DNA from: Moniliella sp. 'wahieum'
Taxonomy: Eukaryota
DNA length: 64,000 nucleotides
Assembly: GCA_003971905.1 (NCBI GenBank)
Contig: RSEE01000036.1
Location: forward strand, 310,001 to 374,000
Reading direction: 5' to 3'
Shown piece by piece: positions 5,451-60,364 of this stretch. The translations under genes and the position numbers were made by a program. Within the stretch, counting starts at the first letter, position 1. Each line of letters opens with the position of its first letter. Under the pieces are notes generated by a model. The model was given only the letters and a program-made list of their open reading frames with translations. It was not told where the DNA came from and did not search any database.

Positions 5451-8400
5451 TTAGAGAGCAAAGTTGGTGGGGAAGATGATTCCATCCCGACGGACGAGGA
5501 GAAGGCGGTGGGAACCGGGCCTGGGTTCCGAGCTTGGCAGAGGAAGGGAGAGACTGGCAGGCAATTTGCAGACCAGCTGGTGCGATGATGCGGCATAGAC
5601 CGTCGGTGCCGCGTGTAGACCCAAGAAGATGTGAAAATGGGCATCGAGGTTTTCGCCATGGAGGACAAGGTAGGTGGTACCTTGACCATCGCGGATGTCT
5701 TTCAATGCGTACACGCGCGGGAAATGGGAGATGGGAGCGACCAAAGAACTGTTGGCTGGCGCGAGCGGGACATCGTCTTTGGGGTTGGGGAGCGATCCAG
5801 TCGAGAGGGAGCGGGGCGGATGCGGGGTCGGAGGGGGCGCAATGAACGGCTCGCTGCGTCCTTTGGTTTCATGCGCTTCACCCGGCGCCACATCCCCCAC
5901 CAGTTCCGGAGGAATACTAAACTTGTACTCGGTCGTCTCGGCACCGACAATGCACCACACGTTGCTCTTCGCCACGTCCAGAACCCAGGAATGAATTTGC
6001 GCCGCTCTCGAATTCCCATCTTCGTCCGGACCATTGGTCGCAGCCAAACTGCTCCAGGACGCGGTGCGAGTCCGATTCCCCAAAGCGTCATTGCTCTCGC
6101 TATCCTCCCACCCCGACTGAACCCCCGACGCCCCACTCTCGGATTCGCAGTCGACGACTGCTCCTGCCTTCGTACTCGTGAGGCCCTACGGTCCTTTTGG
6201 TTTTGTGCCGACCAGGCTGAACTGGCGCGACGGGGGTGGCGGATGGGTCCGATGCCGTTCCCGGGGCCGCTCGGCATCCGAGCCTCCACAGATCACCACT
6301 GTGGCCCCGTGCCATCGACTCGGACCGGCGCCGTGGATCGCGTGCTGACAATGGGGACACCTGTTGGGGCCCGGTGGATCGGGGTCGCTGGTCGCACTGA
6401 CGCGCGGCGTGCAGGCACGGAAAGGGAAGGCGCGTGTGGGCGCATCGGGTATCGGTTCGACCCAGCCACTCCCAGCCAGTGGACAACGAAGCAGATCGCT
6501 TACTCCCCACAGCAGAGCAGACCGATCCCGATCCCGATCTCGACGCGACCGAGCTGGCGCGTGGTTTGTGCGGCTGGACCGGATGTAAGTCCCATCGCCG
6601 GTGGTCAGCCAGCTTGTGCATGCCAACCATGTCGTGAGACAGGCGAGGAAACTCCCGCTGGCGTTGGCCGGGCCAAGGGCGGAGAGGGCGGAAGGCGAAT
6701 CAGAACCAGAGGGGGGATTGTACAGCTCCAGGGCGAGTTTGTGCAATTGAAGTACAGGCGAGTCGGAAGGTTCGCGGCCCAAGCCGAGCCGAATCGATTG
6801 TACCTTCCGCCCCTTGCGCATCCGTTTGGATCGAGGCAAAGCCACCAAACACTGACGTTCCCTTTTCCACCCGCCGAAGCACCATCGTGGGCGTGACGAA
6901 TCCGGTCACCACGCACTGCAGTACCACTGGGCGATTGTAGAGCACTGCTTGTGGCAACTCGTGCGGCAGGAAAGGAAGTGCGTTAAGTGGAGGAGGAGGG
7001 AGAGGATCGTCGCCGGCCCGGAAGGGTGAACCGGTCCGGGGCGTGCGCACGGGGCGAGTGCCACCATGGGGGGTAAATTGGATGAATCGCTCCCAGTTGG
7101 CTTGGCCGGATCAACGAGGTAGATGACGAAAGGATCCAGTAATTATCGGCAGCAACAAACGAGTTGCCCGGCAACTTGCTCAACTCGTCCGGCGCGATCC
7201 CACCGTCCGTCTTGAAGCGGGCCTCGAGGTCGCTGCGGGCTACACAGAGGTGCTTGGTCGATGAGGCTTGGGCGCGCTGACGATGGAAAAGGGAGACGAT
7301 CGAACCATGGGTGATGAGCACTGTGAGAGGAAGAGAAAAAGAAAAAAAGACCCTTGTTAGTAGGTGTGCGCGCAGTTGCTCTGAATGGGGAGAGTACTCA
7401 CTTTCCGACCCCCGAATCGACTGCCGTTTCTTGGACGGCTTGGAGATGATCCGGACCGGACTCGAGGGAAAGGTACCGAGAAGCTTGTGCTGGCCTGGGT
7501 ACGCGCTGGAAGGGGCTGTGAGGACAAACTCGGCGTGAACGTCGCGCTGCAACGCGCGCGTCCTTCTCGCTGCTGGTCCCAGGCCGGGCGGCTGCAGCCA
7601 CTTGTGCTATCTCGGATACAGCCATCTGCTTAAACGTTGATTTGGCCAGGATCATTGTCTTCCATGCCTCTTCTGGTTGGCACACCGAGTTTGGAGGGTG
7701 GATGTCAACCACTTGGCCGCGGTGTTCCACCAGCGCAAGGGTATTCGGAATCCGCCGTCGACTCGTACGACATTTTGCACCCAACCATCAATTGGCCTGG
7801 CTGAACGGTTGGCGCCATCCTGGGCTCCCGCACGGCCTGCGTGGACCCATTCCGGTCGACAAGGATGAGCTCACCAGTCCGCCCGCCCACACCCATCTCC
7901 TTCGCCTGAGCGGGGCGGGAGAGGCGAGCGGGTGACCCAGTTGCTGCCCATCAAGAGCAGCATCGGAGGCGGACACATAAACCGTTTTCCACTGGTCCAT
8001 ATGACTTTTGAACCACTTTGGGTGTCAGGGAGCGAATCATGCGGTCGCCATTGCGCGAGCCGGCCGGCGGCAAGGTAGGCCTGGACTAGGCGAGTCAGAT
8101 GAGAGAGAGGGAGATGTGCGGCACATTCTCTCCGGAATCCGTGCATGAGGGGAAACAATCGACCCCGTTTTCGCACTTGAGGATCGGCGGCGAGAGCAGC
8201 ATCTGCAGAAGCAGAAACAACTGTCTCGGCTTCGCGGTGGGTTATGCCTACACGGCAGCAGCAAGGGAATGCGGCTGGGTAGTTGTCCAGGCTGGTTTGG
8301 AGGAGCCAAGGCAGATGAGGGGATGTTTTTGAGTTGAAGGGATTTGCCCCTCCCGACTGGGAAGGAAGCTTGCGGCGACGCCGGGGGGGCGGTGCTCAAG

Positions 8401-9684: not shown

Positions 9685-10549
9685 TGGGGGGGGGAGGTGG
9701 TGGAGGTGGTGGGGATGGAGAACGGAGGATGGTGCAGGGGGAAGGGATGAGTCGATGAGGCGTTTGTTGGCAGCCGAGAGGCCGAGGCGACACGCGAGCC
9801 GACGCTCCCAGTTCAGCCGGCGACGCCTTCCGGCAGACAGCGCAGGCCGCCCCCAGCCACACCCTGGCCAGACTCGGGGAGAGATTGGCTGTGTTGGGAC
9901 GAGACAGCCGGATGATATGATCTCGATGATCGAGATGATCGATGAAGACGAAGCTTGAAGCGGGCAGCCGCACTTCGGCTATACTTATTCATCTGCCTCA
10001 GGGGGAGGCATTGGCTGCGGGCACGGGCCAGTATATGGCGGCTCCGACAGAAGTGGCTGCGAGCGCTCAGCGCCCACTATCAATATATCAATGTCCGTAC
10101 TCAGTATCATCTCTCGGCGGGTTGCCGTCCGCCTCCAACCTCCACCTTCAAGCTCCCAGATTCATCGCACATTGCATCATCCATCCATCCGAACCCGCCG
10201 GCTAAACAGAACGCGGCGACGAGCGATCGCACGATTCCATAACCTTGGATTCCAGCAACCCACTGGCGGTACCCACCCTCTCATCCCTCTGGGCCCAAGC
10301 AGGCCTAGGCCGGTGGCGGTATGGGGGAAACGCATCAGCCGATGACACTGGGATGGAACTGTGGGGTTGGTGGCGCACAGGAACGGCCAGGCGGGGCACG
10401 GACGCAGCAGGACGCAGCCTGGAGGGGGACAGTCACGTGTTCGGTGCAACTGTCCGTTGCAATTTCACTTTGCTTGCGGCGTCCGCCGGGGCGCTTGTCC
10501 AGGCAGAAGCTCCCACGGCAGAAGCTTCTGCCTGGGCCAAGGCTGGAGG

Positions 10550-12719: not shown

Positions 12720-13266
12720 ATCTGAACCTGAGCCTGAACCCGACCCTCTCGCCTTGCCCAACACTGAGAGCGAGGACAACGATGCCATGACACTGCAGCT
12801 CACCTGCTGCCGCGCAAGGATGGGGGAATGTAGGCCCGTCCCCACGGGAGGCCGGAGACCGCCAGCTCATAGTCCCGCACAGACAGGTGCGACGGCGACA
12901 GGCAGCGTCGTGTTCGCATAGGCAGATGCGTGCCTTAGGCTGGCGTCGTGCGCCCCTCGGCCGTCGCTTTCCGCGCCGGCGTCTGGCTGTTCCGGGCGGC
13001 ACCGCGCCAGTCTCCCAGCGCGGCTGCTCGGCCGCGCTGCACACTCGCCCCCTGCCCCCATCGCAGCAGCGCAGGCCGCATCCATCGCCAACCGTCACGC
13101 ATCAGCCATCACCCGCCACATCCGCACGCTGGCTGGCTGGCGGGCGTGCTGCTGAGAAGCAGCCGCGGCCGTGGCCCATCACTCGTCCCTCCATCCACCC
13201 CTGTCGCCGCCGTCGCCGCCAAGCCTGCCCCCCCACCCCCCTCTCGCCCGTGTCTGCACCACCGCC

Positions 13267-14227
13267 ATGGCCGACTTTGTCAAGCTCTCGCTCTTTGGCA
13301 CCGTTCGAGGTCACCAGCCGCTACCACCAGCTGGAGCCTGTCGGCATGGGCGCGTTTGGCCTCGTGTGCTCCGCCAAGGACCAACTCACCGATGCCAATG
13401 TCGCCATCAAGAAAATCATGAAGCCGTTCAGCACGCCTGTGCTGGCCAAGCGTACCTACCGTGAGCTCAAGCCTCAAGCACATCCGCCACGAGAACATCA
13501 TCTCCCTCTCCGACATCTTCATCTCGCCCCTCGAGGACCTGTACTTTGTCACCGAGCTTCTTGGCACCGACCTGCACCGCCTCCTCACCTCGCGCCCGCT
13601 CGAGACGCAGTTTATCCAGTACTTCCTCTACCAGATCCTGCGTGGCCTCAAGTACGTCCACTCGGCCGGCGTCGTGCACCGCGATCTCAAGCCGAGCAAC
13701 ATCCTGGTCAACGAGAACTGCGACCTGAAGATTTGCGACTTTGGCTTGGCGCGCATCCAGGACCCACAAATGACCGGCTACGTCTCGACGCGTTACATCG
13801 TGCGCCGGAGATTATGCTCACGTGGCAAAAGTACGATGTGGCAGTCGACATTTGGTCGGCCGGGTGCATCTTTGCGAGATGTTGGGGGGAAACCGCTGTT
13901 CCCGGGCAAGGACCATGTCAACCAGTTCTCCATCATCACTGAGCTGTTGGGTACACCTCCGGACGAGGTGATCCAAACGATCTGCTCGGAAAACACGTTG
14001 CGCTTCGTGCAGAGCTTGCCCAAGCGGGAGCGGGTGCCATTTAGCCAACGCTTCCCTACCGCCGACCCGCTCGCGTTGGACTTGTTGGAACGCATGTTGG
14101 TCTTTGACCCACGAACCCGCATCTCCGCCGCGAAGCTCTTGCCCACCCTTACCTTGCGCCCTACCACGATCCTACTGACGAGCCCGAGGCCGACGAGCCG
14201 TTTGATTGGTCGTTTAATGATGCCGAC

Positions 14228-14259
<32 letters not shown>

Positions 14260-19872: not shown

Positions 19873-20152
19873 TGTTGAGAGGTATCGTGAGTGACGCCGG
19901 TGATGGCTCGTGTGTTTTAATAGCCAAGGTCCCTTCAGTCCTTCCTCAGGCCTAGCAATCCTGTTGTTTTCTCTCGCTTTTGTTTTTTTGTTCCCCCCCT
20001 ATAGCCCCCAGCGGCGACTGGCTGCTTGATATTCCTCTGTGATCTGTAGGCGTTTCTGGGTGGCTTAGACCACCACCACTATATAGTGCGATTGCATCAC
20101 CGTCTCAAAGGGCCATCATGCATCACGACTCCAGATCTCATCTCGATCATCA
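19873..20152 (+). mobile_element. Solo LTR copy A (old, diverged)
   Basis: TGTTGAG..ATCATCA ends; flanks TAAGT/GAAGT (4/5 TSD match); aligns to copies B and C along its length. Strand is relative only. Confidence 0.7.
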
Positions 20153-20612
20153 GAAGTGTCTTCCTTCGTGCCGTAGTGTGCCCCGGCGCGCCATAGCATA
20201 CGCCTGTCCAGACGCTGTTAATTGAGTTACAGGTGGATGATGCGATCGGCCTAAGATGATGCGTTTAGCAGCTCAGCCTGGCTCAGCTCAGCCTCAGTCT
20301 TGAGAGCCCCTGAGGGGCCTGAGGCCTGAGCGCGCGCACATCAAAGTGACGACGTAGTCATTAATCATTGTGGGATTCATGCACACACGTGTCATGATCT
20401 GGATCGATCCCCTGTGTTTTTAATTTCATCAACAAAACATCATGTGTTCATCTTCTTTCTTCTTCTCGACCATCGCCAGCAGGACCCCTATATACCGAAG
20501 ACTCCGTGGCCAGACGATGCCTCTCCCGACCGCTCATAGCCCTCATATTTCAGGATTTCCGCTCTGGCATCCTCTTTCTAGGCCCATTGTGGCACCAATA
20601 TGTATATTTCTT

Positions 20613-20846
20613 TGTTGAGCCATCGGGTGGATCGTGCTTTGGCCAATGCCCCTTCAGTTCCTCCTCATGCCTGGGAGTTCTGTTTTCTCTCTGTTTTTCC
20701 TTGTTCAGCAGCTTATAGCCCCTGGTGGCGACTCGCTGCTTGATGCATGATGTTCCTCTGTAGGCGTTGCTGGTTGGCTTAGACCACCACCACCACCAGT
20801 GCAATCGCATCACCCTCGAGGACCATCTGGACTCCAGGTCTCATCA
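20613..20846 (+). mobile_element. Solo LTR copy B (234 bp)
   Basis: TG..CA ends (TGTTGAG..CTCATCA, imperfect terminal inverted repeat); perfect 5-bp TSD TTCTT at 20608-20612 and 20847-20851. Confidence 0.85.
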
Positions 20847-21607
20847 TTCTTTGCTGTCCCTCTTCACGTTTCATGCATGTCCATCAGCTCCCGCGTCCAA
20901 AGACGTCAAAGTTGGACGTGTTCATCGTTCAACACGTTCAACCAACATTCAGCGCCAGCGCGTTTCGAGTTCAGTACTCGGTGCATGTTTTGACGTTAAT
21001 TGGCGAGCCGTCGGCGCCTGAACGTTGAACGTCCTGAGAGCGTCTGTCTGTACCTGAGGCAGGCTCAGAAGGACTCAGATCGTTCGGAGAGATCCGAGAT
21101 CTAACCGGTGACCACGATGGTCTTTGATTAAGTTCTTTGATTAAGTTGATCGGTGACCGGTGACCACACAAGTCACCCGATCCCGTATGTAAGCCGAAAC
21201 ACGTGCCGGCACAGACATGGCTTTTCGGTCACCGGTCCCAGTCACGCGTCACATGTCACATGTCATGCATGTCACATGTCAAGTGGCGAGCTTCAAGCTG
21301 CCAAACAGTTGTAGTAGTAAAGCTACTCAGTACTCACACGTCAAGCTCAAGCGTCAAGCTGCATGCTTCTAGAGCTTTTAAAGCATTACAAAGGCCCATT
21401 CGGTCTCGTGTGTTCATCGACATCGTCCATCTCAGATCTCATCCATCCCATCGATATCAATCTCAGATCTCACTCGCATCACGCATCATGCGTCATGCGC
21501 GTCATACATCAAACGTTATGCAATGTGTGTTGGGCCATCGATTCGATCAGAAGAGAATCCCTCTTCCCCTCCACCATGGCGTAATAGCCTTGCACATTCT
21601 CGATTCT

Positions 21608-21626
21608 TGACATGTGACATGTGACA
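21608..21626. repeat. 5+2 heptamer array TGACA-TG-TGACA-TG-TGACA
   Basis: Read directly from sequence. Confidence 0.95.
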
Positions 21627-21652
21627 GCAGATTCAGGTCTCAGATGCCGATG

Positions 21653-21884
21653 TGATGAGACCTGGAGTCCAGATGGTCTCGAGGGTGATGCAATCGCACC
21701 AGTGGTGGTGGTGGTGGTCTAAACCAACCAGCAACGCCTACTGAGGAACATCAAGCAGCGAGTCGCCACCAGGGGCTAAGCTGCGGAACAAGGAAAAACA
21801 GGAGAGAGAAAAAACAACGGAACTCCTAGGCCTGAGGAGGAACTGAAGGGACATTGGCCAAAGCACGAGCCACCTGGCTCAACA
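21653..21884 (-). mobile_element. Solo LTR copy C (232 bp), inverted relative to A and B
   Basis: Plus strand reads TGATGAG..CTCAACA; perfect 5-bp TSD CGATG at 21648-21652 and 21885-21889; its reverse complement aligns closely with copy B. Confidence 0.85.
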
Positions 21885-22024
21885 CGATGCACATGAGGCC
21901 GGCGTTAAGGGCCTGAAGCCCATGGCTAAGGTCAAAAACTGAGCACTGTTGAAACCGTCGAAGACGCATCACCCGATGCTCTGTGGCTGTTCACAAAGAT
22001 GAATATATCCGAGAAAAAGAGAAA

Positions 22025-23057: not shown

Positions 23058-24485
23058 TCAGGAGCAAAAAGGGAGGGCCTCCTCAGAGTCAAAGGGCTGC
23101 GTCCGGTCCCCTCCTTCGTAATCAATATCCGACCAATACACTGGCTCGCCCGCTAAGATGATGCGTGCGCCATGATGGAATTGCTTGAGTAGCCAGATGT
23201 AGTGGTGGCGCAGAACTCGGTTGACCATCCAGAGTCGTTGCTGCAGAGAGTCTGAAGTGATTTCCGGCTGAATCTGCCAGCATGGTGCTGGAAGGGAAAT
23301 GAATCCGTCCTCAGACGGTTCCACGCTGGCTCCTTCGGAGCACAACGATGAAGCAGGTAAGGATTGGAGCTTCGAAGTCAGGTCCGCTTGTTCTTGCAGT
23401 AACATTTTGAGGCGGACTGGCACTTCCATCGCATTTACACCTCGGTCGCCGGGCACATAGCGTCTTGGGTGGATGCGAATTTCCGAGGAATGGAAAACGA
23501 TTCGGTGTCTGTAATGATGCGCAAGATGAGTGTGAGAAGACGGGGGAGAGGGAGGAAGAAGAAGTCGCGTACCCATTCGTACCCTGAGTGTGCTTGGCAA
23601 TGTTGTTATTGCATTTGGGACAAGGCAAGATGACGTTGTACCCTACCACCATTCCCGCAGCCATTGCATCCGAGCGTTTGGGTGAGGCAACGACACGACC
23701 GCTCCTGAGGCACTCCGCAATGCAACGTGGATTGACCTAGTGGGTTCGGGGGCATAAACCGCACTGCAATTGTTGGGTATTGCGTCCGTACTGTAAAGTG
23801 TAACATGGGGTTTGAGCAACAGCACTGCCTTCATTCCTCGGTCAGTGAAAAAACTGTCACACTGGATGCAGCGAACAATGTAGACGTTTTGACGCTGATT
23901 GGCCTTGTCCTGTCGACTCAGCAGGCGTCGGTGTGGGTAGGGTGGGAAAGGAAAGGAGTCAGCAAGTTGAAACATGGAGGATTCAGGGTGCATCGAGGCG
24001 GGAGCATGGTCGGAGGCCGATAATGTGGACAGACTTGATGGGGTAGGCGAGTAGACGGGTGCGGACAGGGGAGGCAAAGACTGAGTGTGGTCGAAGTTGC
24101 CAGGGTGGAGCCGAGTGGAGACGGCGTGAGCCGAGGGGGTCCATGGGGGCTGCTCTGAGGCGGAAGCATCAGATACGTTTGACCTTGTTAGGAGTGCGGG
24201 CGGGTGGATGAGGGGAACCTCGACATGGGTGGGCGCCTCCTCGCACCCAGGGCCAAGGGGCGTAGGGGGCACAGCGGATGAGAAAGGCATGGGTGCTTGT
24301 GGGTGCTGGGAGGAGGTGGGGGTGGTGGAGAAGGATGAGAGCACTCGGTTTTGTGGTGGGCAGGTGCAGGGTAAGGAATCAGAGAATGGTCGTCTTTTAA
24401 AGCAAAGCCGAGAGTTTGCTGCTTTCACCTCGATCGCAGTGGCCTTATCAATCTCAGATCTCACCTCGCGCGGCATGGCAGCCAT
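23058..24485 (-). CDS. FAM72-family protein
   Basis: VYIVRCIQCDSFFTDRGMKAVLLLKPHVTLYSTDAIP (FAM72 hallmark RGMKAVLL..STD), CRCLTQTLGCNGCGN..VGYNVILPCPKC and NGHRIVFHSSEI after removing intron 23509-23572. Start and stop approximate. Confidence 0.85.
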
Positions 24486-24817
24486 GGGTATTCTGCATCG
24501 ACGATGATCGATCGGGGGTCAAGCTGTCAAGCTCAAGCTTCAAGCTCCAATAGGACATCAGCGCGTTAAGCCTCAGTACTCAGTAGCGTTCACAGCCCAA
24601 GCATCCCGCCCGCGCCTCGGCCAAGACGACGGGCTTGTTCAGCGCTCAGCCTACGAACAACATCAACAGTATCCGCCGCATCTCCACCTCGCCCCTGAAC
24701 AAATCGAGCAGCAGTACCCACATGCCCAACGGCTGCGTCATGCCGTGACGCGTGACGTTGGGGGGTGCAGGCAGGTGCAGGCTGGGGCAGGGCCTGTCGC
24801 AGACGCACATGGCCGTG

Positions 24818-24843
24818 TCACATGTCACATGTCACATGTCATA
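24818..24843. repeat. 5+2 heptamer array (TCACA-TG)x3-TCATA
   Basis: Read directly from sequence. Confidence 0.95.
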
Positions 24844-26963
24844 GCGATGCGTGATGACTGATCGATGATCGATGATCGGCATGATATCATGCATCGATTG
24901 CCGGATCCAATGGGGTGGTACCCACCGAATCGGCAACGGCGCGCTGCCCTCGATCCAATTCACCCACCGTGTTCGCCACGCAGGGTGTCATGCCTCCCAC
25001 AAGTTCGGACTCCGACATGCTCCCGTCAGAGGCAGGCACCAGCACAAAACCTGGCATCCGAGTGTGAGATCTCAGAATCTGGGGATCTGGGATCTGGGAT
25101 CTGAGAACCTAGAGGCTCGGCTCAGCACTCAGTGTATGCCCACACCTCCTCTACTCTGTGGTGCCAGGACTACCGATGGCCGGTTACCTGTTACCGATTA
25201 CCGGTTACCTACCTTTTGCCTCTTCCGTACAACGTTGGCCGGTGTCATCATGAGACGCGTCTTCACCGAGACGCGAACGTGATAACATAATGGAACTCTT
25301 CATAAGATGAAGCATCGCAACTACAAGCAGACACACAATATAGTTCGGCTGCAACGGAAGTGAGGATTTTGAGGCCTTGATGCATACAGGGATTTGTGTG
25401 GGTATTATGTATTGCAATATGTGGCTCCCAGCTTTTTTGTGATATATCTCAACGAGGGCTTCTTTGGGAGGTCTTTGGGGGGGGGGGTATAATCGTTCTT
25501 TTGGCAAACCAAACAAATGTGTTTAGTTTTCCTTTATTGGCGCGTTATTGGACTGCCCTCCGCCAATCCAGCTTATTGCCACCTTTTCGGCCGTTGCCAT
25601 GCCAATCATAAATGTTCCTAAGCACACATATATATTGTAAGCGCGCCGACTGTATATAAAAAAGTACCGCCCGGCTCACGCGCTCATCGCAGTTATCCTT
25701 CGCACTCTCGCAGCGTCACGCCCGCGTCGCTCCTCCTCTCACGGAGAGCGATGTCACCGGTCACCCTTCGGCCTCTCCTGAGGCCCCAGCCTGAGGCCTA
25801 AGGCGCATGCCTGACAGACGCACGTGTCCGCACCACACACGCCAGATCGTCATAGCATCACAACACCACACCTTTCACACTTCCAAAAAGAGCTGCTATC
25901 TTATACTAAGATGAGAGGAAGTGCTATCGGATGATATTCTTAGTGCCTTCGCAGCCTTCGCTTGCTTCTGTTGGAGGGAGTGATGGGGTTCCCCTACACG
26001 GCCCTCAGTAGATCGGTAGTGACGCTCGTATATACTAAGATGCATCACGCACTCTGGTTGCCTATATATACCACAGAACACAAAAGTGTCTCCGACGCAC
26101 AGAAAACTGTGTGTGGTACCTTATTTATTCACTACGGGCGAAAGGTAAGACGGTGCGCACCGTACTCCTACATCGGACCAGATGACATCCACTGAGATCG
26201 ATCTCTGAATCTCCACCAAATCCATCAAACTTTTGATCCCTGTACGGTGGTCTAATAGTATCACAGAATCGATAATCATAAGCATAATGAAGATTCATAT
26301 GCATAATGAAGATGAGGTTCATTGACAGAAAAAAAGTCCTCTCTTCTCCTGTCACCGAATGACCACCTCTAACAGGACCTTGGTCTCCCTCGTTTAGCCC
26401 CGACTGTTAATCCATCCACTGTGTCGTGGATATTCTTTTCCCTTTGCTTTCTATTCTCTTCTTCGCAATCATCAGTTTTCGCCGCGTGGTATCCACTATT
26501 TTGATTTTTTAACTCATTTTCATCACGCATCCACCACACACACTACAGTTTCTGTCTCGGCCCCTAGGGTACTTTTTTGAGAGTGGGCATAAACTGTGTC
26601 TCCTCTGTGTACAATGAGTGCCAGCAAGTATCTCTCGGTCTTCAGCTTACTATTTGGTTAAATGCACCACATTCTTAGGGCTACAGGTTCTAGGGGCGTG
26701 AAAGAAAAAAAAGAGAATGAGTGCGAGTGGCTTTTTGGTGGGTAACTGTATAGTTGACGTTTTGTCTCGTATATGTACTAGAAATGTGAAAACAATATAT
26801 ATCCACCTCCCCATACGAAAACTATACAAGAAGTTTGTATATTTCCACCGCTCTATAACCCACCACAGCTAGATGCGTCTCCACCATCCAAAGCGCAGTC
26901 CTAGCCCCTCCTGACCGGCCCCACTGGCCCCTGGGTGTTGCTGTAACCAAATAAAAGGCTTTT

Positions 26964-39483: not shown

Positions 39484-41738
39484 ATGCCCGCTGGCGAAGA
39501 TCCCTCTACCCATCGGCGCCGTCGAGTGCCGCGAAGACGCTCACCCACTCCGCCCACCCTCGACGAAATCCGCCAGCAGTACGAGGAGGTGGGCCAAGCT
39601 CCCCCCCTGCCCAACATCCCCCTCCCTGATGATTTCGAGGACGGCCACTCCACCCCGAGGTGGGGAGTGTTCCCTCCCAGTCCTACCTCCACCGCCATTC
39701 CACTGCCCAGTCGATGCGTCCTTCCTTCTCACATGGTGCCGATGATGAGCTGGATGTCAGCAACTTGCCACATCACCGATGCACAGCGCGCCCGCATTGT
39801 ATCACGCCAGTACGTTCTGCCCCGTACCCTTCTTGTCCCATGGGTCACTGACCCAGCTTCTCTTACAGTGCTCTGGCCGATTCCGAGTCCAACCGCGCAT
39901 CAGTAGCAAACGACTCGGCCTTTTCGAACGTGAACGAGGCTGGATTCTCATCGTCGGCCGTGTCCGGCGCCGCTGGAGACGAAGAGGGCGAAGAGCACAA
40001 CGCCGACGAGGATACCAAGTCCCTTACCATCGTCCGGTGGCGCTGTTGTCGACGATATTTATAAGTGGCCACCAAAAACCGCGCGGGCAAAGGAACGTGC
40101 GCAGCGAGTCTCTTCACGTTCTCGTACCACCACCATCGATTCGTCTTCGACACTTCCTCTATCAAAGAGCGGGTGGATTCCGTCGCCATTTTGTTCAGCA
40201 GCAAGCAGCGGAGCAGGGCCGTCCAAGCCCAGGGCATTGCGCTCTTTATTGACTTTTTGTCCCTCTATGGCCACTTTGCCGGTGAAGACTTGGATGATCT
40301 CGATGCGGTCACGGAAGAGGACGAGGAAGAGGAGGCCGAACCGAGGGTGAGAAGGAGACCTTGAGCGGGCAGGCGCTCGTTCCGGTGCGATTCCTTCTCC
40401 TCCCGCCGTGCGGGTGAAGGATCGAGCGAGCGTGATGCGCTCCTGGCTGCACCTGCGGTCGTGCCGTGGAGCACGTCCGGGTCTTAACGGCCGCATGACG
40501 ACCCAGCAACGCATTCGCAGTGTCAGCCAGCAAAAGAAACCGGGTGAGGCAACCGTGACAGAGGCTGTCATGATGCTGCTCAAGTCGTTTGTGGGGACAG
40601 CATTTTTTCCTTGGCAAGGCCTTTTCAATGGCGGTTTGGGCTTTTCCATCGTTGTCCTGACATCGGTCGCCATGATCTCACTCGTTTCGTTCTTGCTACT
40701 TGTTAAGGCCAACCTCAAGTGCCTGCTTCGTTTGGTGACATGGGTGGCGTGCTGTATGGTCCTCGCATGCGCCTTGCCATCTTGGCTTCGATTGTCTTTT
40801 CCCAATTGGGCTTTGTCGCTTTCTACCGTCTTGTCGCCCAGAGTCTGCAGGCTTTCCTTGCCGTCTCGCACTGCGAGCGGCTCGTGCCAATCGGCTATCT
40901 CATTCTTGTCCAGCTGATTGCCTTTGTCCCGCTTCCTTGGTGCGCCGTATTGCCAAACTCTCCGGCACGGCATTGGTGGCGGATGCTTTCATTCTCTTTG
41001 GCATTGTGTACCTTTTCCAGTTTGAGATTCGCAAGATTGCGCATGAAGGGTTGGCTGATGTGGTGCAATTCAACCGTCACGACTTCCCGCTGTTGATTGG
41101 TACCGCTGTGTTTACATTTGGGGCATTGGCCTCGTCATTCCCATCACCGAGTCCATGAAGGAGCCACAAAAGTTCCCCAAGGTGCTCAGCTACGTGATGG
41201 TTTTCATTACCATTCTATTTGCATCGGCGGGCGCTTTGGGTTATGGCGCGTTTGGCTCAGAGATCCAGACAGTGGTCATCACCAACTTGCCACAAAACAG
41301 CCCTTTCGTGCAAGCCTTGCAGGCGTTCTACAGTCTGGCGATCCTGCTCTCGACTCCTCTTCAGCTGTCCCCGCTCTTTCGATCCTTGAGAGGGGCATCT
41401 TTGGCTCGCGGCGGAGCGGTAAGTTTGACTGGCGCATCAGGTGCAGAAGAACGGTTCCAGCATTCTTGTTGTAGGCGTTTGTGCCCTGGCCGCCTGGGGG
41501 TGCGAGCGATTTGGACAAGTTTGTGTCGTTGATTGGCAGCGTGGCGTGTGTGCGTTTGTTATCTACCCGCCGCTCTTGCATCAAGGCATGCGGACGCGAT
41601 GGCGTACGCGCATATCGACGATCTTCTCTTGGCATTCGGCATTGTCTGTGTCCTCTTTGCCGGCTCTCAGACCATTGTGGCGCTGGCGGAGCCGCGGGGA
41701 CCAGCAAGCCGCCCCAGTGTTCGGCTCCGCACCCTTAG
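39484..41738 (+). CDS. Avt3/Avt4-like vacuolar amino acid transporter (Aa_trans)
   Basis: GGFRRHFV, FIDFLSLYGHFAGEDL, ATVTEAVMMLLKSFVGT, SFGDMGGVLYG, LIGTAVFTF, MKEPQKFPKVL, YSLAILLSTPLQL, DLDKFVSLIGS. Intron 39810-39868. End approximate. Confidence 0.92.
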
Positions 41739-42497
41739 ATGCCAAATTCAGCTTCAAGCATCAAGCAGCAAGCTCCGCCTTGCCCCCATTTGTGCTGTTA
41801 GCCAACCCTGTCAGCTCGGCTGATTCTATTTTCCTACCATCGCCATCCACACCTTGGTCTCTCGTCTACTTCTCTCTGGGCCGTATTCCGAATACTCTTC
41901 ACTGGGCCGTGCTTCCCTTTCATGTCATGTCTTAAGCCGTATGTTATCTGGCTACTCATCCAGCGGGTGGGAGTTCCTCCTGTGCTCCACAATCAATATA
42001 TGATGGATGGCGCTGGGTGCCTGCCCGCCCCTGGTTTGGGCTTCTTATTTCTCTGGAAGGAACACAACGGATAGACTCAGCTCGTATCTTCGCCTGGGAC
42101 GCCTTGGAAGTTGGCCAGCTTGACTGGACGCTTCATTCACGTTGTGCACTAACAGAGGACAGACAGAAACAGAGGCGCTCCTGAGAGATGATATCAACGC
42201 AAGATGAGGAGTCCCCTTCCGGTGGCACTAAAAATACCGCACTTGCGCCCAACCTCCAGTGGTCTTGAAACGTTAAATCGGGGGCGCCATGCTGTGCAAC
42301 GTGGAAGCCCCTCGCCTCGCGCAAGAGTAGCCCTGTGCGCGCATTGGGCGGCTGCCAGCACACGGCCAGTGGTAGCCTTCCCGCCCCGCTTACGTGATTC
42401 CTGATTGGCCAAGCATCCAGCTGCCTCGGCCACTTTCACTCGGCTCCACCGCTCCACTTGGGCTTGCGCTGTTCCACCACCTCTGGCTCTATCCTCC

Positions 42498-43198
42498 ATG
42501 TTCATCCTCAACTGGTTTTGGGTGCGTTTCTCCACGCTGCCACTTCTCTTCTGCCTGCCCAGCTGACCCCCTGCCCATCCAGGACGTGCTGGCCCAGCTC
42601 GGCCTGGCCCACAAGAACGCCAAGATTCTTTTCCTCGGCCTGGACAATGCTGGCAAGACGACGTTGCTCCATATGCTCAAGAACGACAAGCTTGCCACGC
42701 TCCAGCCTACGCTTCACCCCACTAGCGAAGAGCTCTCCATTGGTCAGGTTCGCTTCACCACCTACGACTTGGGCGGTCACTTGCAGCGCGTCGCCTGTGG
42801 AAGACTACTTCCCTGAGGTCGACGGCATTGTCTTCATGGTTGACGACACGGATGTTCCCCGCTTTGTCGAGTCGCGTGCCGAGCTGGACTCGCTGCTCTC
42901 CATTGAGGAACTGTCCAAGGTCCCCTTCTTGATCTTGGCAACAAGATTGACTCTCCGGCAGCTGTGTCGGAGGAGGAGCTGCGTGCTGCCCTCGGTCTGT
43001 ACCAGACGACAGGCAAGGGCAAGGTGCCCCTCAAGGACATTCGCCCTGTCGAGCTGTTCATGTGCTCTGTCGTGGAACGGCAGGGCTATGGCGAGGGTTT
43101 CCGCTGGATCTCCCAATACGTGGGTCCCTTCCCTTTCCTCCTGATCTCTTTGACGCTGTTCACTAACCTTGACTCTCTGCGTCGCTCGCCAGATTTAA
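42498..43198 (+). CDS. SAR1: Sar1 small GTPase (COPII)
   Basis: MFILNWFW^[68 protein letters not shown]^I*. Introns 42522-42582 and 43120-43192. Confidence 0.98.
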
Positions 43199-43675
43199 TG
43201 GTCCCGTGCCAGGTCTCCGTTGTACCTTGCTATCAAGGCATTCTCGAAGGATACTCTAAAGTGGGCTCAATTGTCTTGACCCGTCATGCCTCTCTGCGTC
43301 TGACCCAAAGTGCGGACGGGAGGAGCGTGTCAGAACCGGTGCATTTTTCTGCAAACGTTCCATGTCAAATCTCAGATCTCACTTCTTCCATTGGACTGCT
43401 AGCCACCGGTTACTTATGATGCTCGTTGCCCTTTCCCCTCCCCTTCCTCGCCTCCAGTCCTTAGTATATGACTGTGGCGGAAGCCTACTCAGCCCGTTTG
43501 ATGAATCTACTTGCTCTAGTCTGGGTTCTCCACTGTGCATCATAGCCTCTGCCATGCCCCACCCCTTTCGTCAGGAGACGCTAAACTCATCCGCCGAATT
43601 GCATCTGACAGAAACTATAGCCATACCAACAATGGCGATTCATTTGCTTGAGCGGTCGGGGTTCAACTTCAACGT

Positions 43676-45480: not shown

Positions 45481-45977
45481 TCCAGTATGCGAAGGAAAGT
45501 GAAGCGGTGGAGTGGGCATCGCGCGACGGAGATGGTGGTGGCGATCTCCGTCTGGAAGAGGCCGCAATAATGTTCGAGGTGGAGCTAGCGCGTGAGCACG
45601 TGAGCGTGAGTCCGTCTGCGATTTGAAAATTGATTTGGCTGCGGATCTCCGGTAGCCGAGCTTTGCCGCGGGCAACGTAATTAATCATCGATCCTCGCAC
45701 TGGTTGATGATCGATGACGTTGGAAGCTACCACGCTCGACGTTGTCTGGGATCATCTTATTTCCGTTTTGCGCCTTATAGTAGCTTCCCCCTGAAGTGGC
45801 TGTCGACTTGTACCTGACTTGCCCTATTTCTGATCCCAGCGGCTGACACAGCCCCCAGCCCTCAGGAGCTAGCCTGCTGTCCCTCGCGCCTTCCTATCCC
45901 ACCACCACTTCCCCCTCTATATATCTGCCTACTTTGGGCCGCTTCCGCACGCGTTTCGGCGTCCCCTCTCCAACACC

Positions 45978-47613
45978 ATGGCCGAACAGCGCTGTCTACG
46001 CACGTGCCTGCCAGCCTGCCCGGCTCGGACGACAAGTCCGCCCTCAGCTCGCCAGACGAGCTGCCCTGCCCATCCAGGCTGGCTCGAAGGACCAAGCATT
46101 TCACCACCGCTTCCAGCACCTCACCACCCCCTCGCCGCGCCCAGATCGAGAGCCAGGGCATTGTGCCTCTTCCCGCGAAGCCCAAACAGGAACCGCATGG
46201 TGGAGCGTTGGCTTCCTCTGGTTTTCGGGTAACTTCAACATTCTTTCTTTCAGTACCGGTACCCTTGCTGCCTCTTTTGGCCTCAGCTTCTATGGCGCCT
46301 ATGGTACCATCCTTGGGTTTGGTCTTCTTTGTGCTCTACCACCCGCCTACCTTTCCACATTCGGCCCCGCTTGGCATGCGCCAGCTGGTCCAGTCGCGAT
46401 ACAGTTGGGGCTTCTGGCCCACCTGCCTCATTGCACTCCTCAGTGCCGCTACTATGGTAGGGTTTGTATTCTTAACGCCATTCTCGGTGGACAGGCCCTG
46501 GCGGCGGAAGTTCGCGTACCGAAGGGTGGACAACTGCCGCCAGTGGTACTGGTGCTGGCCAGCTTATCCCTCTCCAGCAAGAGACCATGTCGACGGTGGG
46601 GGGATTGTGATTGTGTGCGTGTGCGCACTGGTCATCTCCTTTTTTGGTATTCGCATCCTGCATGTCTTTGAACGCCGCCATTTGGGTGCTCACCATTATT
46701 CCTTTTATCTCGATCATTGCTGTGGCAGGACAGGGCCCCGGGGCCTGCATATCCCGGAAGGCCAAGTCACAATCGACCGAGGAGTACCCTGCCGGCAGTG
46801 CAGCCCCAGTATTGGCCATGGCAGGTGTCGTGGCTGTTTCTTTATTCCTTATGCACCCCTCGCGAGGTGACATGTCACTTTACTTGCGGTCCGACACGAG
46901 TTCGTGAAATTGTTTTGGGGCACGTACGCGGCTTTTTTTATCAAGTATCCCAGCTCAGTTGGGCGCTGCCTTTGCCTATTCGCCATGGACATCCCCGCAT
47001 GGCAAGACGCGCTGGACAAGTCGGTTGGTGCCTGTTCAATACGATTCTGGCTGGCCCTCAGACTCGCGGGACGTCCGCGCTTCGTGGCTTTGGCAAATTG
47101 CAACTGTTCTTCTCGCCCTCTCCACGGAGGAGAGCAATTTGGCCCTGACGTTCTACTCGTTGACGCTCGCCATTCAAACAATGGTACCTTTCAAGTTTGT
47201 TTACCGCACACCTCGTTTCTTTTCAGTATCTGGTCACGGCCATTGTGCTGCCCACAGCCATTGCGGGGGCAACTCACTTTACAGTACCCTGTCGACATTT
47301 ACCACCATTCTCTCCTATTGGTCGGCGCTTTACATTGCCATTGTCATGACGGAGCACATTGTTTCCGTAAGTCCAACTTTGCCAACTACGACAGGTCCGT
47401 GTGGGACAAGCCTTCCAGCTTCCCTGGGGATTGGGGCCATGTCAGCAGCGTTGATGTCACTTGCGCCCTTGATCCCATCAGCCTCGAAAACGTGGTACAC
47501 GGGACCCATCGCCAAGCATTCGGGGACCTTGGGTTTGAGGTTGGTTGGGTTGCGGCGGCAGTTGTGCTGTACATTCCCATGCGCTACTTGAACTGCGCAT
47601 GTTCAAGAGGTAG
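45978..47613 (+). CDS. NCS1 purine-cytosine/vitamin B6 permease (Fcy2/Tpn1-like)
   Basis: IESQGIVP, GFLWFSGNFNILSFSTGTL, YLSTFGP..GMRQLVQSRYSWG, LNAILGGQAL, ILSYWSALYIAIVMTEH, WYTGPIA, GDLGFE. Confidence 0.9.
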
Positions 47614-47956: not shown

Positions 47957-49017
47957 TGTTATTTTTGCTAATTGCGTGTTACGTACCGCGTGAGTTTTGA
48001 CATGTGTGTCTGCGGCTACGTACGCTCTCTTTGGAGGCCCCGCTCCTCACTCGCACCCTAAGGCCTAACCCCCGACGCTGGCATCTGACCTCTGACCTTG
48101 ACGCCTCCACCACTTGTACCACATTGCCATCGCCCACGCACCCGCGCCCGAGCCCTCTCTTCGGGTACCCTCTTCCCCGCACCCGCCGCATCTGGCTTCT
48201 TCGCCCGCCTACCGCTGTTTTTTTGCATGAGGAAAACCCGAAACGGCGCTGTACCTCCTCTGCTATGACCCACGCCGTTACATCGAAACGAGGGGGGACA
48301 TGAAGAGTGGAACCTTTTTTGGGGGGGGGCACCCAGGATGTGGCATGCCTCCTGCAGCACCGACTAACCTCTCCTTCTCCGACCCGTACCTCGGACGATA
48401 GAGCGTTTGGAATTGATCTTTCCCGTGGCTTCACGCCAGAAAAGAGGTCTCATGTGAACTGCACAGAAAATGTCGCTGACAGGTGCGTGTGCATCCCCAC
48501 GCCGCCGTTGCCTTCCTGATTGACTTGGATCATGTAACCGACTGCCGGCCAGCTTGACTTATTCTTGGTTGGCTAGACCGAAAGCGCAGTATGGGGCTAC
48601 GCCCGGGCCACGTGCAGTGTTGAACTCCACGTTTCGTTGTCTCTGGCTGAGCATCTTCTCTTGGCGTAGATGGAGACGATGTCGGATCGAGAGGAAGATG
48701 CGTGGTGGGCAAATGCCGAAGGATGAAGAGTTTATGGCAGCTCCAGTGGGATGTCGAGGCACGTGACAATGTGACGCCACGAGCGCATTGCTGCGGGGTA
48801 AATGGGACAGACGTCGCAGGCAACCGCTGGGCCCGCTGGAGCGGAATTGGGAGGGGCGGAAGGGCGGGAGTATTCGGTGATGCGGCGCAGAAGTCGAATG
48901 CGTTCCGAACGCGACCGAAAATACGCGCGAGGCGAGTGGCGCTGCCGAGGCGAATTGGACGAGACCACCACCACCTTCTCCTCCTCCTTCTCCTCCACCC
49001 CATCCCCTCCCATCACA

Positions 49018-50700
49018 ATGGCCGGCCGCTTGGGAATGATGCAACCGCCCGTGATTGTGCTGCGCGAAGGCACCGACTCGTCCCAGGGCACAGGGCAACT
49101 GCTGAGCAACATTGGCGCCTGCCAGACGGTCGTTGGCTGTGTCGCCTCCACCCTCGGCCCGCGCGGAATGGACAAGCTCATCATCGATGGCCGCGGAAAG
49201 AGCACAATTTCCAATGATGGCGCGACTATTCTCAAGCTCCTAGAGATTGTGCACCCGGCTGCTCGCACCTTGGTCGACATTGCCCGTGCCCAGGACGCCG
49301 AGGTGGGCGACGGCACGACCTCAGTCGTGCTCCTGGCAGGTGAGATGCTCAAGGAGGCCCGCCCCTTTATTGAAGACGGTGTTTCGCCTCACATTATCAT
49401 CCGCGCCTTCCGCAAAGCTGCTCAATTGGCTGTCGAACGCGTCAAGCAGATGGCCGTTGCCATTGACCGCAACGATCCGGACGGCTTCCGTGACCTGCTG
49501 ATGAAGTGCGCGGGCACTGCTATGAGCTCCAAGCTAATCGTCTCGCAGCGCAGCTTCTTCAGCAACATGGTCGTTGATGCTGTCCAAACACTTGACCAGG
49601 ATGACCTGGACGAGAATTTGATCGGAATCAAGAAGGTGCCTGGCGGCGGCATGCAGGATTCGCTCTTGGTCAAGGGCGTGGCTTTCAAAAAGACGTTTGC
49701 CTATGCTGGCTTTGAGCAACAGCCCAAACGGTTCACCAACCCAAAAATTCTTAACCTGAACGTTGAGCTTGAACTCAAGGCCGAGAAGGACAATGCTGAG
49801 GTTCGAATCAACGAGGTCAGCGAGTACCAAGCCATTGTCGATGCCGAGTGGAACATTATCTATGCTAAGCTCGAGGCCATCGTCAAGTCGGGGGCCCAAG
49901 TGGTCCTATCTAAGCTGCCAATCGGGACCTGGCCACCCAATTTTTCGCCGACCGCAACATTTTCTGCGCTGGGCGTGTGGCAGCGGACGATATGCAGCGT
50001 GTGATCCAGGCCGTCGGAGGTTCGGTGCAGTCGACCGTATCGGATCTGCGCCCTGAGCACCTTGGCACATGCCAGCTGTTTGAAGAGCGTCAGATCGGGT
50101 CGGAGCGATTCAACCTCTTTGAGGGTTGTCACGCGGCCAAGACGTGCACCCTTATTCTTCGGGGCGGAGCGGAACAGTTCATCGCCGAAGTGGAGCGCTC
50201 GCTGCACGATGCTATCATGATTGTCAAGCGGGCGATCAAGAACGGTTCGATCGTTGCCCGGTGGAGCAGTGGAGATGGAGTTGTCCAAATACCTGCGCGA
50301 GTATGCCCGGACGATTGAGGGGAAGCAGCAATTGATCATCGGTGCATTCGCTAAGGCGCTCGAAGTGATCCCGCGGCAGATTGCGGACAATGCCGGTCTG
50401 GACGCTACGGATCTGCTCAATCAGTTGCGGATGCGACATGCCCAAGGCCACTCTTGGGACGGGATCGACATGGACACGGACGGTGTCGCTAACAACTTGG
50501 AAAAGTTCGTATGGGAGCCGTCCTTGGTCAAGATTAACGCCATCTCCTCGGCTGCCGAGGCTGCCACTCTCATCCTTTCGGTGGATGAGACGATCAAAAA
50601 CCAGCAGTCGGAACGGCCGAACCCAGGCCCGCCCGCCCCGCCTGGTACGGCGCAGCGGGCTTTGCGCGGTGCTGGGCGCCGGACGGGGGGGCGTCGGTGA
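49018..50700 (+). CDS. CCT7: T-complex protein 1 subunit eta
   Basis: [93 protein letters not shown]. Confidence 0.97.
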
Positions 50701-56778: not shown

Positions 56779-57878
56779 TCAGGAAAAGTACTCGGGCAGC
56801 AGGAAACTCAGGTTCGCCTTGGCCTGTGCTGGGATGGCATGCGGCTTGGTGACAATCGCAAACTTCATACTGCCACGAAGTGCCTTGTTGGACGCCGACT
56901 CGGCATTGGCCGCCTCGGCATGCACCGTGTCCAGCACCCCCAGCACCACTTCTTGCGACGCAACCACATTGTGCTGCAGCACCGCCATCACCTGCTCCAC
57001 CGTCACAGCCCCCTCATGCGCCCGCCACGCATCGTAGTCCGTTGCCGTTGCCACCAGCACATATCCTAACTCGGCCTCGCGTGCCAGCTTGGCCTCGGCA
57101 AGACAGACATGTTGATAATGTCGCCGCCCAGTTGGCGGTAGACGTTGCTCTCGGCCCGTGTCGAAAACGCCGGACCCTCCATGCAGACCACACACTTGTC
57201 CCCATGCACATGCACCTCGGGCGCTGCCGTCTTGAGCACGTCACGCACCTTGTTCTCAACCAGCGACCGTAGGTGCTCATCGAACGGGTCGCCAAACATG
57301 GCGTGGGCCACAACCGACGACTCCTCCCCGTCGCCAAAGAACGAGGCACGGCGGACCCCCTTGGTGCGATCAAGGATTTGGGAAGGAACAATGAAATCCT
57401 TTGGACGCACTTCTTCCCGCAGACTGCCAACGCAGAGAAGGCAACGATGGTGCGGACACCAAGGTGCTTGAGGGCGGCAATGTTGGCCAACGCAGGCACC
57501 TTGCTCGGCGGCACTTCGTGGGCAACGCCATGGCGGGCAAGGAAAGCAATATGCACACCACTTGGAAGTTTGGCGACAGTGATGGGCGAGCTGGGCTTGC
57601 CCCAGGGCTAGACACGGGGTAATGGGAGTTGTTAGTCCACGCATGTACCCCGTGGGAACCCGTGATAGGATCCGGAGCCAAGCAGTACGCACCGTGTCAG
57701 GATGGACCTGGGTGACCACCTCGACGCCGCGCAGGTGGTAGAGGCCGGAGCCGCCAATGACGCCAACGCGAACGCCAAGCTGCTGCACCTGAGTGACGGA
57801 GAGGTCATGGTGATGGTGGGCAAAGGGGGCCAGCAGCGAAGGGAAAAGACCGCAACGACGGATTGTGAGCTGCGCCAT
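56779..57878 (-). CDS. MEU1: S-methyl-5'-thioadenosine phosphorylase
   Basis: [11 protein letters not shown]^PWG (intron 57608-57692), [46 protein letters not shown]. Confidence 0.95.
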
Positions 57879-57985
57879 GGGCAATGGCCTGGATGTGGAC
57901 TGGACAGCAAGATACTGATTGAGCCGAGGGGGCGTGAGCGGATGTTGCAATTGTGTTGGGCACGTGACGGCAGCGACGGGCGAGG

Positions 57986-58011
57986 TGACCGGTGACCGGT
58001 GACCGGTGACC
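57986..58011. repeat. 5+2 heptamer array (TGACC-GG)x3-TGACC
   Basis: Read directly from sequence; lies about 110 bp upstream of the MEU1 ATG. Confidence 0.95.
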
Positions 58012-59730: not shown

Positions 59731-60167
59731 AGGGGCAGCTGCAGCAACATCGAAATGGGTGTGCCATGCGCTCTGCTCAGCTGGGCGTTGAGCTGGGACT
59801 ATGCGGTCCGCCGAATACGCCCGGACGTCGGTGTACGGTGCCGTGAAGTCTAAACACTCGTTCGGAACTGTTTGCCGTCGATAATTGATGTGACGTGTGA
59901 CGCTTGCTTGCAGCTCGGATGATGGCATGCCCCTGAGCCTGATCAGGAGTGGGAACGCAACGGAAAGTATCGGAATAAGGAGGCTAGCTACATGGATGGA
60001 CCTCGTGTATATCATGCACCGCATGCATCCCATACCTCAAATGAAATACATCATCGACATCATCCATTGTGCATCAGTGTAACAGTGTGGTCTGCGTCTG
60101 TGGTCTGCGTCAACTCCAAGAGTTGTGACAGTAGTCTGAGCCATCAAAACATACAACAGACCATTGT

Positions 60168-60364
60168 TGTTTTTGAGCCACAGAAGGGTGACTAGGGTGT
60201 TTGGTTAAGTCCCTCAGTCTCTCTCCAGGCTTAAGACGGTACAGCCTAGCTCCTGGTGTAACCCGTCTGTAGGTGTTGCTGCTTGGCTTAGATCCCCACC
60301 ACTGCTAGGGCGATTGCATCACCCTGGATGGCCATCAGATCTCAGAGGACTCCAGGTCGCATCA
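60168..60364 (+). mobile_element. Solo LTR copy D (old, internally deleted)
   Basis: TGTTTTTGAGCCA..GGACTCCAGGTCGCATCA aligns with copy B (CTGTAGG-GTTGCTG-TTGGCTTAGA..GCGATTGCATCACCCT); flanks ATTGT/ATTGC (4/5 TSD match). Confidence 0.7.

Follow-up and report, generated by a model that had tools for sequence, protein, structure and literature searches.

Footprints of Tc1/mariner transposons are highly stereotyped and consist of a few terminal bases flanked on both sides by TA; their palindrome comes from the fixed transposon termini, and their duplication is the dinucleotide TA. Transib elements duplicate 5 bp of their target, and hAT elements 8 bp. Cellular enzymes and repeats produce further small-indel signatures, among them the 2–4 bp duplications of topoisomerase II, the deletions at TNT of TOP1, and the microhomology-mediated tandem duplications of fission yeast. 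In hAT, Transib, and the RAG recombinase, hairpins form on the flanking DNA, are opened by host nucleases, and are rejoined with footprints, as set out in the consulted part of PMC5499845. For Ustilago maydis, numerous 10-bp repeats scattered in the genome have been proposed as footprints of transposable elements, according to a partly consulted source that cites Laurie 2012 and Schirawski 2010 (PMC4081816). Here, we describe 7-nt insertions in a 64,000-nucleotide stretch of the genome of Moniliella sp. 'wahieum' (contig RSEE01000036.1, positions 310,001 to 374,000), referred to below as the window. The insertions are directed to the trinucleotide TSA (5'-T(G/C)A-3'), and several of them are recorded in copies of a long terminal repeat (LTR) located around positions 19873–21884.

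The insertion converts the pentanucleotide TSApq into TSApq-q'p'-TSApq, in which the two-nucleotide filler is the reverse complement of pq. We call this product a canonical site, or scar. All counts are from the one window, and expectations were derived from first-order Markov simulations or dinucleotide shuffles. Period-7 runs of at least five matches occur 173 times in the window, compared to 55 in first-order Markov simulations. Period 7 is the highest in the period scan, above the coding-related periods 3, 6, and 9 (116, 142, and 136 runs, respectively) and all others (66–106). The units of the period-7 runs are composed of TGA or TCA followed by a 4-nt palindrome. A 6-nt palindrome is present in 69 of the 173 runs (40% versus 10% in simulated sequences), and in 50 of the 91 runs that contain a 4-nt palindrome the left-over trinucleotide is TCA or TGA. 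The 5+2+5 arrangement with a palindromic filler is found at 106 positions, compared to about nine expected. Hexamer palindromes bracketed by the same G or C (S-ANNNNT-S) number 110 versus 34 expected, with 69 of them preceded by T and followed by A, and 69 extending to the full 12-mer. The palindrome classes C..G, G..C, and T..A are at or below expectation.

A search of both strands for any pentanucleotide W5 followed by the reverse complement of its last two bases and a second copy of W5 identified 114 sites, of which 79 start with TGA (42) or TCA (37). These 79 canonical sites merge into 49 loci, whereas 0.2–0.6 sites are expected; relative to an expectation of 0.23, the enrichment is approximately 340-fold. 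The other core trinucleotides account for at most three sites each, and TWA together for 6 versus 0. When the number of inverted bases in this design is set to 1, 3, 4, or 5, the counts are 6 versus 4.5, 1 versus 0, 0, and 0 sites. The bare pattern TSANNNNTSA occurs 143 times, compared to 68.7 ± 7.3 in dinucleotide shuffles, none of 100 of which reach 143. The target of the insertion is thus TSA, and the product is a 5-nt direct repeat with exactly two inverted nucleotides, templated by the flank in a fixed geometry. Each event creates a hexamer palindrome, ANNNNT, that did not exist before and has the same G or C on either side. Fourteen of the 16 possible pq dinucleotides are used, and this variety of palindromes argues against a single binding site. 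The TSA target and the inverted-complement filler are mechanistically informative features that go beyond an earlier interpretation of the locus (the sequence-only reading), which had described a 5+2 motif.

The inverted part of the scar is positioned away from TSA in all 79 sites, and an inverted part on the TSA side alone occurs once versus 0.37 expected. The boundary at this end is sharp, as the turn is located exactly 2 nt beyond the A of TSA. The other boundary is mostly positioned exactly 5' of the T and is sometimes moved, with the two inverted bases remaining constant; direct copies of 4 nt (9 versus 1.3 expected), 6 nt (8 versus 0.03), and 7 nt (6 versus 0) are present. TSA is centred in the duplication in four sites versus 0.13 expected, three of which are other phases of canonical loci, and we call this class absent. 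Two clear forms and one ambiguous form carry palindromic (P) nucleotides from both ends, such as TGACA-TG-CA-TGACA, as expected if both ends can be hairpins. Junctions with zero filler are at background (5 versus 4.15). Quasi-palindromes of the form q'p'TSApq outside the canonical loci are mildly enriched (158 versus 139), and no second hidden product class was seen among them. Period-9 forms with a spacer composed of pq and then q'p' are present at 9918–9945 (TGATC-TCGA-TGATC) and 20138–20151 (TCATC-TCGA-TCATC). They may represent a less common class of product, or a canonical event after which 2 nt were duplicated.

Four copies of one repeat family, A to D (Table 1), preserve individual insertion events. 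All copies end with CATCA and begin with TGTTG (for D, TGTTG or TGTTT), and thus have TG...CA termini in four of four cases. Target duplications in the 4–6 bp range are exact around B and C and match at four of five positions around A and D. The three copies in 19873–21884 are approximately 235–280 nt long, and the copies are 460–800 nt apart or inverted. None of the 106 open reading frames (ORFs) of at least 150 codons in the window match reverse transcriptase or integrase families, which indicates the lack of an internal region. Judged from these features, all four copies are solo LTRs, and they resemble the known solo LTRs of LTR retrotransposons in their termini, 5-bp target duplications, divergence, and missing internal region. 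They differ from these in the role considered here, since they merely serve as a neutral substrate that recorded the events, and their own target duplications (TTCTT, CATCG) do not contain TSA. An nhmmer profile of the family retrieves these four copies from the window and none further. Copies B and C are 92.5% identical, and A is 75–79% identical to either. Because A, B, and C each have their own 5-bp target duplication, they are independent insertions. With A and B in direct and C in inverted orientation, three LTRs of one family are located within 2 kb, in one small gene-poor spot.

Copy B contains TGATG-CA-TGATG at 20741–20752 (plus strand), where copies A (TGATA) and C (TGATG) have a single unit. 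It is the type example of the rule: TGA and the following TG are doubled, and the filler CA is the reverse complement of TG. Copy A contains TCTGT-GA-TCTGT at 20036–20047, where B and D (TCTGT) and C (TCAGT) have one unit. Both differences are exactly 7 nt, as the sequence-only reading had stated. At 20114–20125, copy A is again 7 nt longer than B and C, which carry CCATCTGG; the motif at this site is a perfect CATCA-TG-CATCA rather than the mismatched TCATG-CA-TCACG originally proposed. Two additional motifs named in the same interpretation are present with different dimensions. The period-9 form of copy A at 20138–20151 is a 9-nt gain with a 4-nt spacer and not a 5+2 motif, and copy D, with TCAGA-TC-TCAGA at 60335–60346, is 9 nt and not 7 nt longer than B and C. 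The motif of copy D is built on the TCA that is homologous to that of A 20114–20125. At this shared TCA, copy A copied the upstream CA, forming TGCA, and copy D the downstream GA, forming GATC, which makes them two independent events and bears out the claim that different copies acquired different motifs at homologous positions.

Copy C retains the short, pre-insertion state at all three sites of 7-nt difference. Of the approximately ten indel events by which A, B, and C differ, three are the 5+2+5 events. The long forms are best read as gains because each is private to one copy: a gain requires one step, whereas a loss requires at least two, as the other close copies, and D where alignable, are short. 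In the LTR cases, pq was already in the flank and either flank was used; therefore, TSA is the anchor, and either side can be co-duplicated with it. The most diverged copy, A, does carry the most motifs, in a comparison of only four copies. The private gains, the 14 of 16 palindromes, and the dependence of the filler on the local flank support the earlier proposal that the motifs are recurrent insertion mutations rather than selected binding sites. Copy A also contains a specific 14-nt (2 × 7) insertion near its 5' end at 19889–19902, TGAGTGACGCCGGT, with two TGA trinucleotides, which we could not derive from two canonical events.

The abundance of perfect and decayed scars provides an estimate of the rate of the process. 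Sites that follow the 12-mer rule with zero, one, or two violations number 79, 92, and 222, compared to 0.6, 9.3, and 120 expected, which corresponds to an excess of approximately 80–100 sites in each class. The similar excess per class points to a steady input combined with neutral decay. There are 900 TSA sites outside long ORFs, and approximately 4% of the site-orientations carry a perfect scar, which corresponds, roughly, to one event per TSA per per-base substitution. The comparison of copies B and C, with 16 substitutions and one event in 213 aligned columns, gives a similar, also rough, figure. Together, the data suggest a steady input of about one event per TSA site per per-base substitution. 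Exact period-7 tandem duplications occur 49 times, compared to 4.5 expected, and period 7 alone is enriched. TSA is present in 37 of these 49 duplications (76% of units versus 9–33% for periods 4–8).

The scars share features with each of the known systems and differ from all of them. Like the products of hAT, Transib, and RAG, including V(D)J coding joints, they have the duplication on both sides and flank-templated palindromic additions, occasionally from both sides. However, TSA anchors them at one edge of the duplicated 5 nt, nearly all additions measure exactly 2 nt and stand on a single side (79:1), the duplication is 5 nt rather than the 8 bp of hAT, and neither an element nor a transposase is seen in the 64-kb window. 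The order of duplication, 4-nt palindrome, and duplication, together with the high stereotypy, recalls Tc1/mariner footprints. In the window, however, the core is TSA rather than TA, and the palindrome, instead of being derived from fixed termini, is a copy of the flank and differs among sites (14 of 16). As in topoisomerase II, TOP1, and microhomology-mediated indels, small context-dependent changes arise from an endogenous enzyme or from repeat geometry, but none of these signatures is known to join five directly copied nucleotides with two inverted ones, or to be tied to TSA.

We propose that the 5+2 motifs are probably scars of a recurrent site-specific templated insertion, which involves a TSA-anchored staggered break and a hairpin-type (P-nucleotide) end. 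One cut would be placed exactly 5' of the T, and the second on the opposite strand 2 nt beyond the A, so that the ends of the break overlap by 5 nt. The end ...TSApq would transiently become a covalently closed hairpin, or be copied in an equivalent turn-around, and two palindromic P nucleotides would be added before the ends rejoin, with no need for prior homology. Arrays of two to four units would form as the duplicated target is hit again, and through slippage. In neutral DNA, the events would build up roughly as fast per TSA site as substitutions do per base, and exonic events would be removed, since a 7-nt gain shifts the reading frame. The sharp boundary at TSA+2, the slightly fuzzy second boundary, and the scarcity of other outcomes point to a nuclease with sequence specificity, akin to a transposase, recombinase, or topoisomerase, rather than random breakage. 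Three other readings of the product were rejected. The filler is not a remnant of LTR termini (TG/CA), as fillers GA and TC occur. A 3-bp TSA duplication with a foreign 4-nt footprint is ruled out by half of the palindrome being already in the flank in each LTR case. A symmetric 5-bp target, as used by Mu and retroviral integrases, with a central TSA is ruled out by the absence of the centred class.

Several observations weigh against the proposed TSA-anchored break. The chemistry is deduced from the products alone, and all counts come from a single 64-kb window judged against first-order Markov or dinucleotide-shuffle nulls. The event in copy A at 20036–20047 has the core TGT/ACA and not TSA. 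Among the 49 exact period-7 duplications, 12 lack TSA and another 12 contain TSA with an imperfect palindrome; slippage or a second process therefore contributes to these duplications. In eight of the latter 12, a one-base difference from the palindrome is common to both units, which indicates plain 7-nt copying, that is slippage, on top of the primary event. End joining would normally yield more varied products, and the searches detect only products that form repeats. Finally, we know of no nuclease with TSA recognition and asymmetric cuts at positions 0 and +2.

The scars could instead be excision footprints of a cut-and-paste DNA transposon that makes 5-bp duplications and, in the manner of Transib or RAG, forms hairpins on the flanks, leaving two P nucleotides between the copies of its target. 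We consider this unlikely. In its favour, the 5-nt direct repeat is retained as two copies in 79 sites, the filler reverse-complements the 2 nt next to it (79 versus 0.23 expected), as flank-templated P nucleotides would be, and the double-P forms would result from hairpins at both ends. The hairpin-on-flank pathway with footprints has been described for hAT, Transib, and RAG (PMC5499845, consulted in part), and the small '10 bp' repeats of U. maydis have been proposed as footprints (PMC4081816, likewise in part). However, P nucleotides from a transposon excision would appear on either flank with variable junctions, whereas here they are located away from TSA at a ratio of 79:1, and footprints without filler are at background (5 versus 4.15). 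TSA is at the edge of the duplication, unlike in the symmetric targets of dimeric transposases, and the centred class is absent. The window lacks an element with terminal inverted repeats and a 5-bp duplication: 11 matches to this structure consist of the inverted LTR pair B/C, which is the sole strong one, and ten matches of chance level (10–12 nt). None of the 106 ORFs of at least 150 codons match a transposase, integrase, or reverse transcriptase family (Pfam, E ≤ 1e-5), and the target duplications of the resident LTR family do not contain TSA (TTCTT, CATCG). If a symmetric element were excised and the ends then joined, neither the 79:1 asymmetry, nor the position of TSA at the edge, nor the small variety of junctions would be expected; these three features favour a TSA-specific enzyme without a resident element.

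The product would need no dedicated nuclease if a polymerase switched templates, or copied in a fold-back, while replicating DNA or filling gaps. A 3-nt detour onto the complementary strand (q'p'T), after which SApq is re-copied, would formally give the product, and templated inverted insertions occur in synthesis-dependent end joining. Both switches would be unprimed, however, since pre-insertion sites, such as GCTTGATGTTCC in copy C, hold no inverted repeat, and the strict need for TSA and the fixed 2-nt length are unexpected from thermodynamics alone; we consider this explanation improbable. Double TOP1 cleavage 3' of T on both strands is given low weight, as the upstream base preferences of the enzyme are not visible in the composition of the flanks. 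It is highly improbable that the motifs are ordinary heptanucleotide microsatellites formed by slippage, or that the long forms are ancestral and were shortened by microhomology-mediated deletions. Arrays reach four units, 24 of the 49 exact period-7 duplications are not perfect units of TSA and palindrome, and the eight imperfect duplications that are one base off in both units require direct copying of 7 nt. A 5-nt direct repeat also invites the precise loss of one unit. Starting from a site such as TGATG, however, slippage cannot make an initial 5+2 copy that has an inverted filler, and the units are not arbitrary, given the TSA content of the period-7 duplications. Moreover, 31 of the 49 canonical loci are single 12-mers that need a de novo event, and ancestral long forms would require at least two independent precise deletions at each of the three LTR sites. 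The motifs might also be cis-regulatory sites under selection, at which a transcription factor binds direct or palindromic repeats. In line with this, the loci cluster in intergenic DNA, one 12-mer, TCTCAGATCTCA, is found six times at unrelated loci, and 6-bp palindromes are of the kind bound by dimeric factors. We find this explanation barely credible, as only TSA is constant among the 14 of 16 palindromes and the variable bases copy the local flank, the motifs arise as private insertions in decaying solo LTRs, and the smooth decay series fits neutral erosion.

The sequence-only reading also held that the motifs are absent from exons, and this stands as a depletion rather than an absence. Stop-free ORFs of at least 150 codons cover 61% of the window and contain 13 of the 49 canonical loci (binomial P = 9e-7), and the 4,392 nt with Pfam domain alignments contain none of the 49 (P = 0.03). 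The estimate of depletion is rough, as the coding context is defined by stop-free ORFs and Pfam alignments and not by gene models. Three loci are within Pfam-supported frames and never overlap the aligned segment: 24452 and 57984 are positioned 5' of the domain-matching part, and 43370 is 3' of it. The GGTGACC array (Table 1) is probably in the 5' leader of the PNP_UDP_1 gene. The remaining 18 of the 49 loci, which are not single 12-mers, have more than one unit. The 806 nt between LTR copies B and C form the densest cluster of scars in the window.

Table 1 Features of the window. Positions are numbered from the first nucleotide of the window; protein names are from Pfam matches.
Feature	Position	Strand	Remarks
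Solo LTR copy A	19873..20152	+	TGTTG...CATCA ends; flanks TAAGT/GAAGT (4/5 match); most diverged copy
Solo LTR copy B	20613..20846	+	Exact 5-bp target duplication TTCTT at 20608-20612 and 20847-20851
Solo LTR copy C	21653..21884	-	Exact 5-bp duplication CATCG (+ strand CGATG, 21648-21652 and 21885-21889)
Solo LTR copy D, outgroup-like	~60165..60364	+	Flanks ATTGT/ATTGC (4/5) if LTR start is 60168
Cluster of nine canonical loci between LTR B and LTR C	21019..21626		Holds double-P TGACA-TG-CA-TGACA at ~21261 (minus)
Second cluster, seven canonical loci	24452..24877		Units TCA+GATC, AGCT, GTAC, GCGC, CATG; TGA+CGCG, TCGA
Array TGTCACA (TCA + CATG), ~3.7 units	24816..24841	+	Fits repeated hits or slippage on a first event
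Array GGTGACC x4 (TGA + CCGG)	57984..58011	+	Just inside 5' end of stop-free frame of minus-strand PNP_UDP_1 gene
CSL/LAG1-type DNA-binding protein	~5454-7606	-	Pfam
Protein kinase	12791-14249		Pfam
Yippee-like	23646-24518	-	Pfam
Amino-acid transporter	41059-41529		Pfam
Arf-like GTPase	42398-43416		Pfam
Purine/cytosine permease-like	45847-46668		Pfam
CCT7 (TCP-1 eta)	48802-50697		Pfam
PIP5K	51836-52597	-	Pfam
PNP_UDP_1 (phosphorylase superfamily)	57069-58040	-	Pfam
Short-chain dehydrogenase	58729-59727		Pfam

Identical products recur in the window. The 12-mer TCTCAGATCTCA is located at 21430, 21461, 24452, 26969, 27019, and 43370 with unrelated flanks, and TGTCACATGTCA and its complement are likewise recurrent. 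Either TCAGA / TCTCA are favoured targets, or particular products are retained. Other short duplications are present as well. Exact 13-nt tandem duplications occur at 21121–21147 and 60087–60111 (two copies each of TCTTTGATTAAGT and GTGGTCTGCGTCT), and an 11-nt unit, TCCGCCCCTGC, is repeated approximately 2.6 times at 60629–60657. These 13-nt and 11-nt duplications break the TSA rule; therefore, another short-duplication process is also active. The segment 30531–30841 contains diverged direct repeats of 52–60 nt with spacings of 128 and 259 nt and identities of 71–77%; they are unrelated to the scars and may be a repetitive coding segment. The CCT7 exon at 48802–50004 is 82% identical to proteins of Tilletiaria, Violaceomyces, and Tilletia, and 80% identical to that of Sporisorium, and a match of 94% comes from a sequencing-run assembly. 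These identities place the host in the Ustilaginomycotina but outside Ustilago itself.

With one heptamer array of the window (17 nt) as the query, a scan of metagenomes listed at least 121 loci (493 kb). Among the matches listed, 31 canonical loci are positioned away from the seed, a density of 0.063 per kb compared to 0.77 per kb in the window. In six loci inspected among these matches, including four with at least two extra loci, nearly all canonical motifs are the CATG-type seed unit; one of the six also contains an ATTCAAT array. No relative with a general TSA process was found among the matches listed for this single heptamer-array query. In full-text searches of the literature, we found no description of a TSA-anchored 5+2 insertion, and the 10-bp repeats of U. 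maydis were encountered only in PMC4081816. Like the scars, these repeats are numerous, very short, and located between genes of a Ustilaginomycotina genome, going by the consulted part of that source. The window, however, is not from Ustilago, and the likeness is one of description in that part of the source. The searched text supplements of PMC4081816 (11 of 15 files) do not mention the 10-bp repeats. The invariant core TSANNNNTSA has a length of 10 bp, and the scars may thus be the same objects as the U. maydis repeats; we offer this identity as a guess.

The TSA-targeted insertion of five direct and two inverted nucleotides belongs, as a variant, with footprint-like or templated-insertion scars, and there is a real chance that it is the mark of a new endogenous mutator. 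In its furthest-reaching form, which we regard as possible but doubtful, an element-free endogenous TSA-specific nuclease would be a standing mutator of this Ustilaginomycotina lineage. The two cuts of this enzyme would fall 5' of the T and 2 nt past the A, with one end capped by a hairpin. A 7-nt scar would be left per TSA about as often as a base is substituted, and the scars would dominate the non-coding indels, seed palindromes, and be the true origin of the '10-bp repeats' of smuts.

A scar this stereotyped, with one trinucleotide and a fixed 5+2 geometry, is close to a readout of how one enzyme cuts. It turns odd short intergenic repeats into a testable biochemical prediction, namely hairpin-capped breaks at TSA+2. 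If the rate estimate holds, one process supplies a large share of the small insertions in the neutral DNA of the lineage, places a frameshift hazard on every TSA in coding DNA, and continually provides new palindromic hexamers as possible future regulatory sites. The decay series represents a clock that is built into neutral DNA. In addition, the process may account for the short intergenic repeats that have long been noted in smut genomes.

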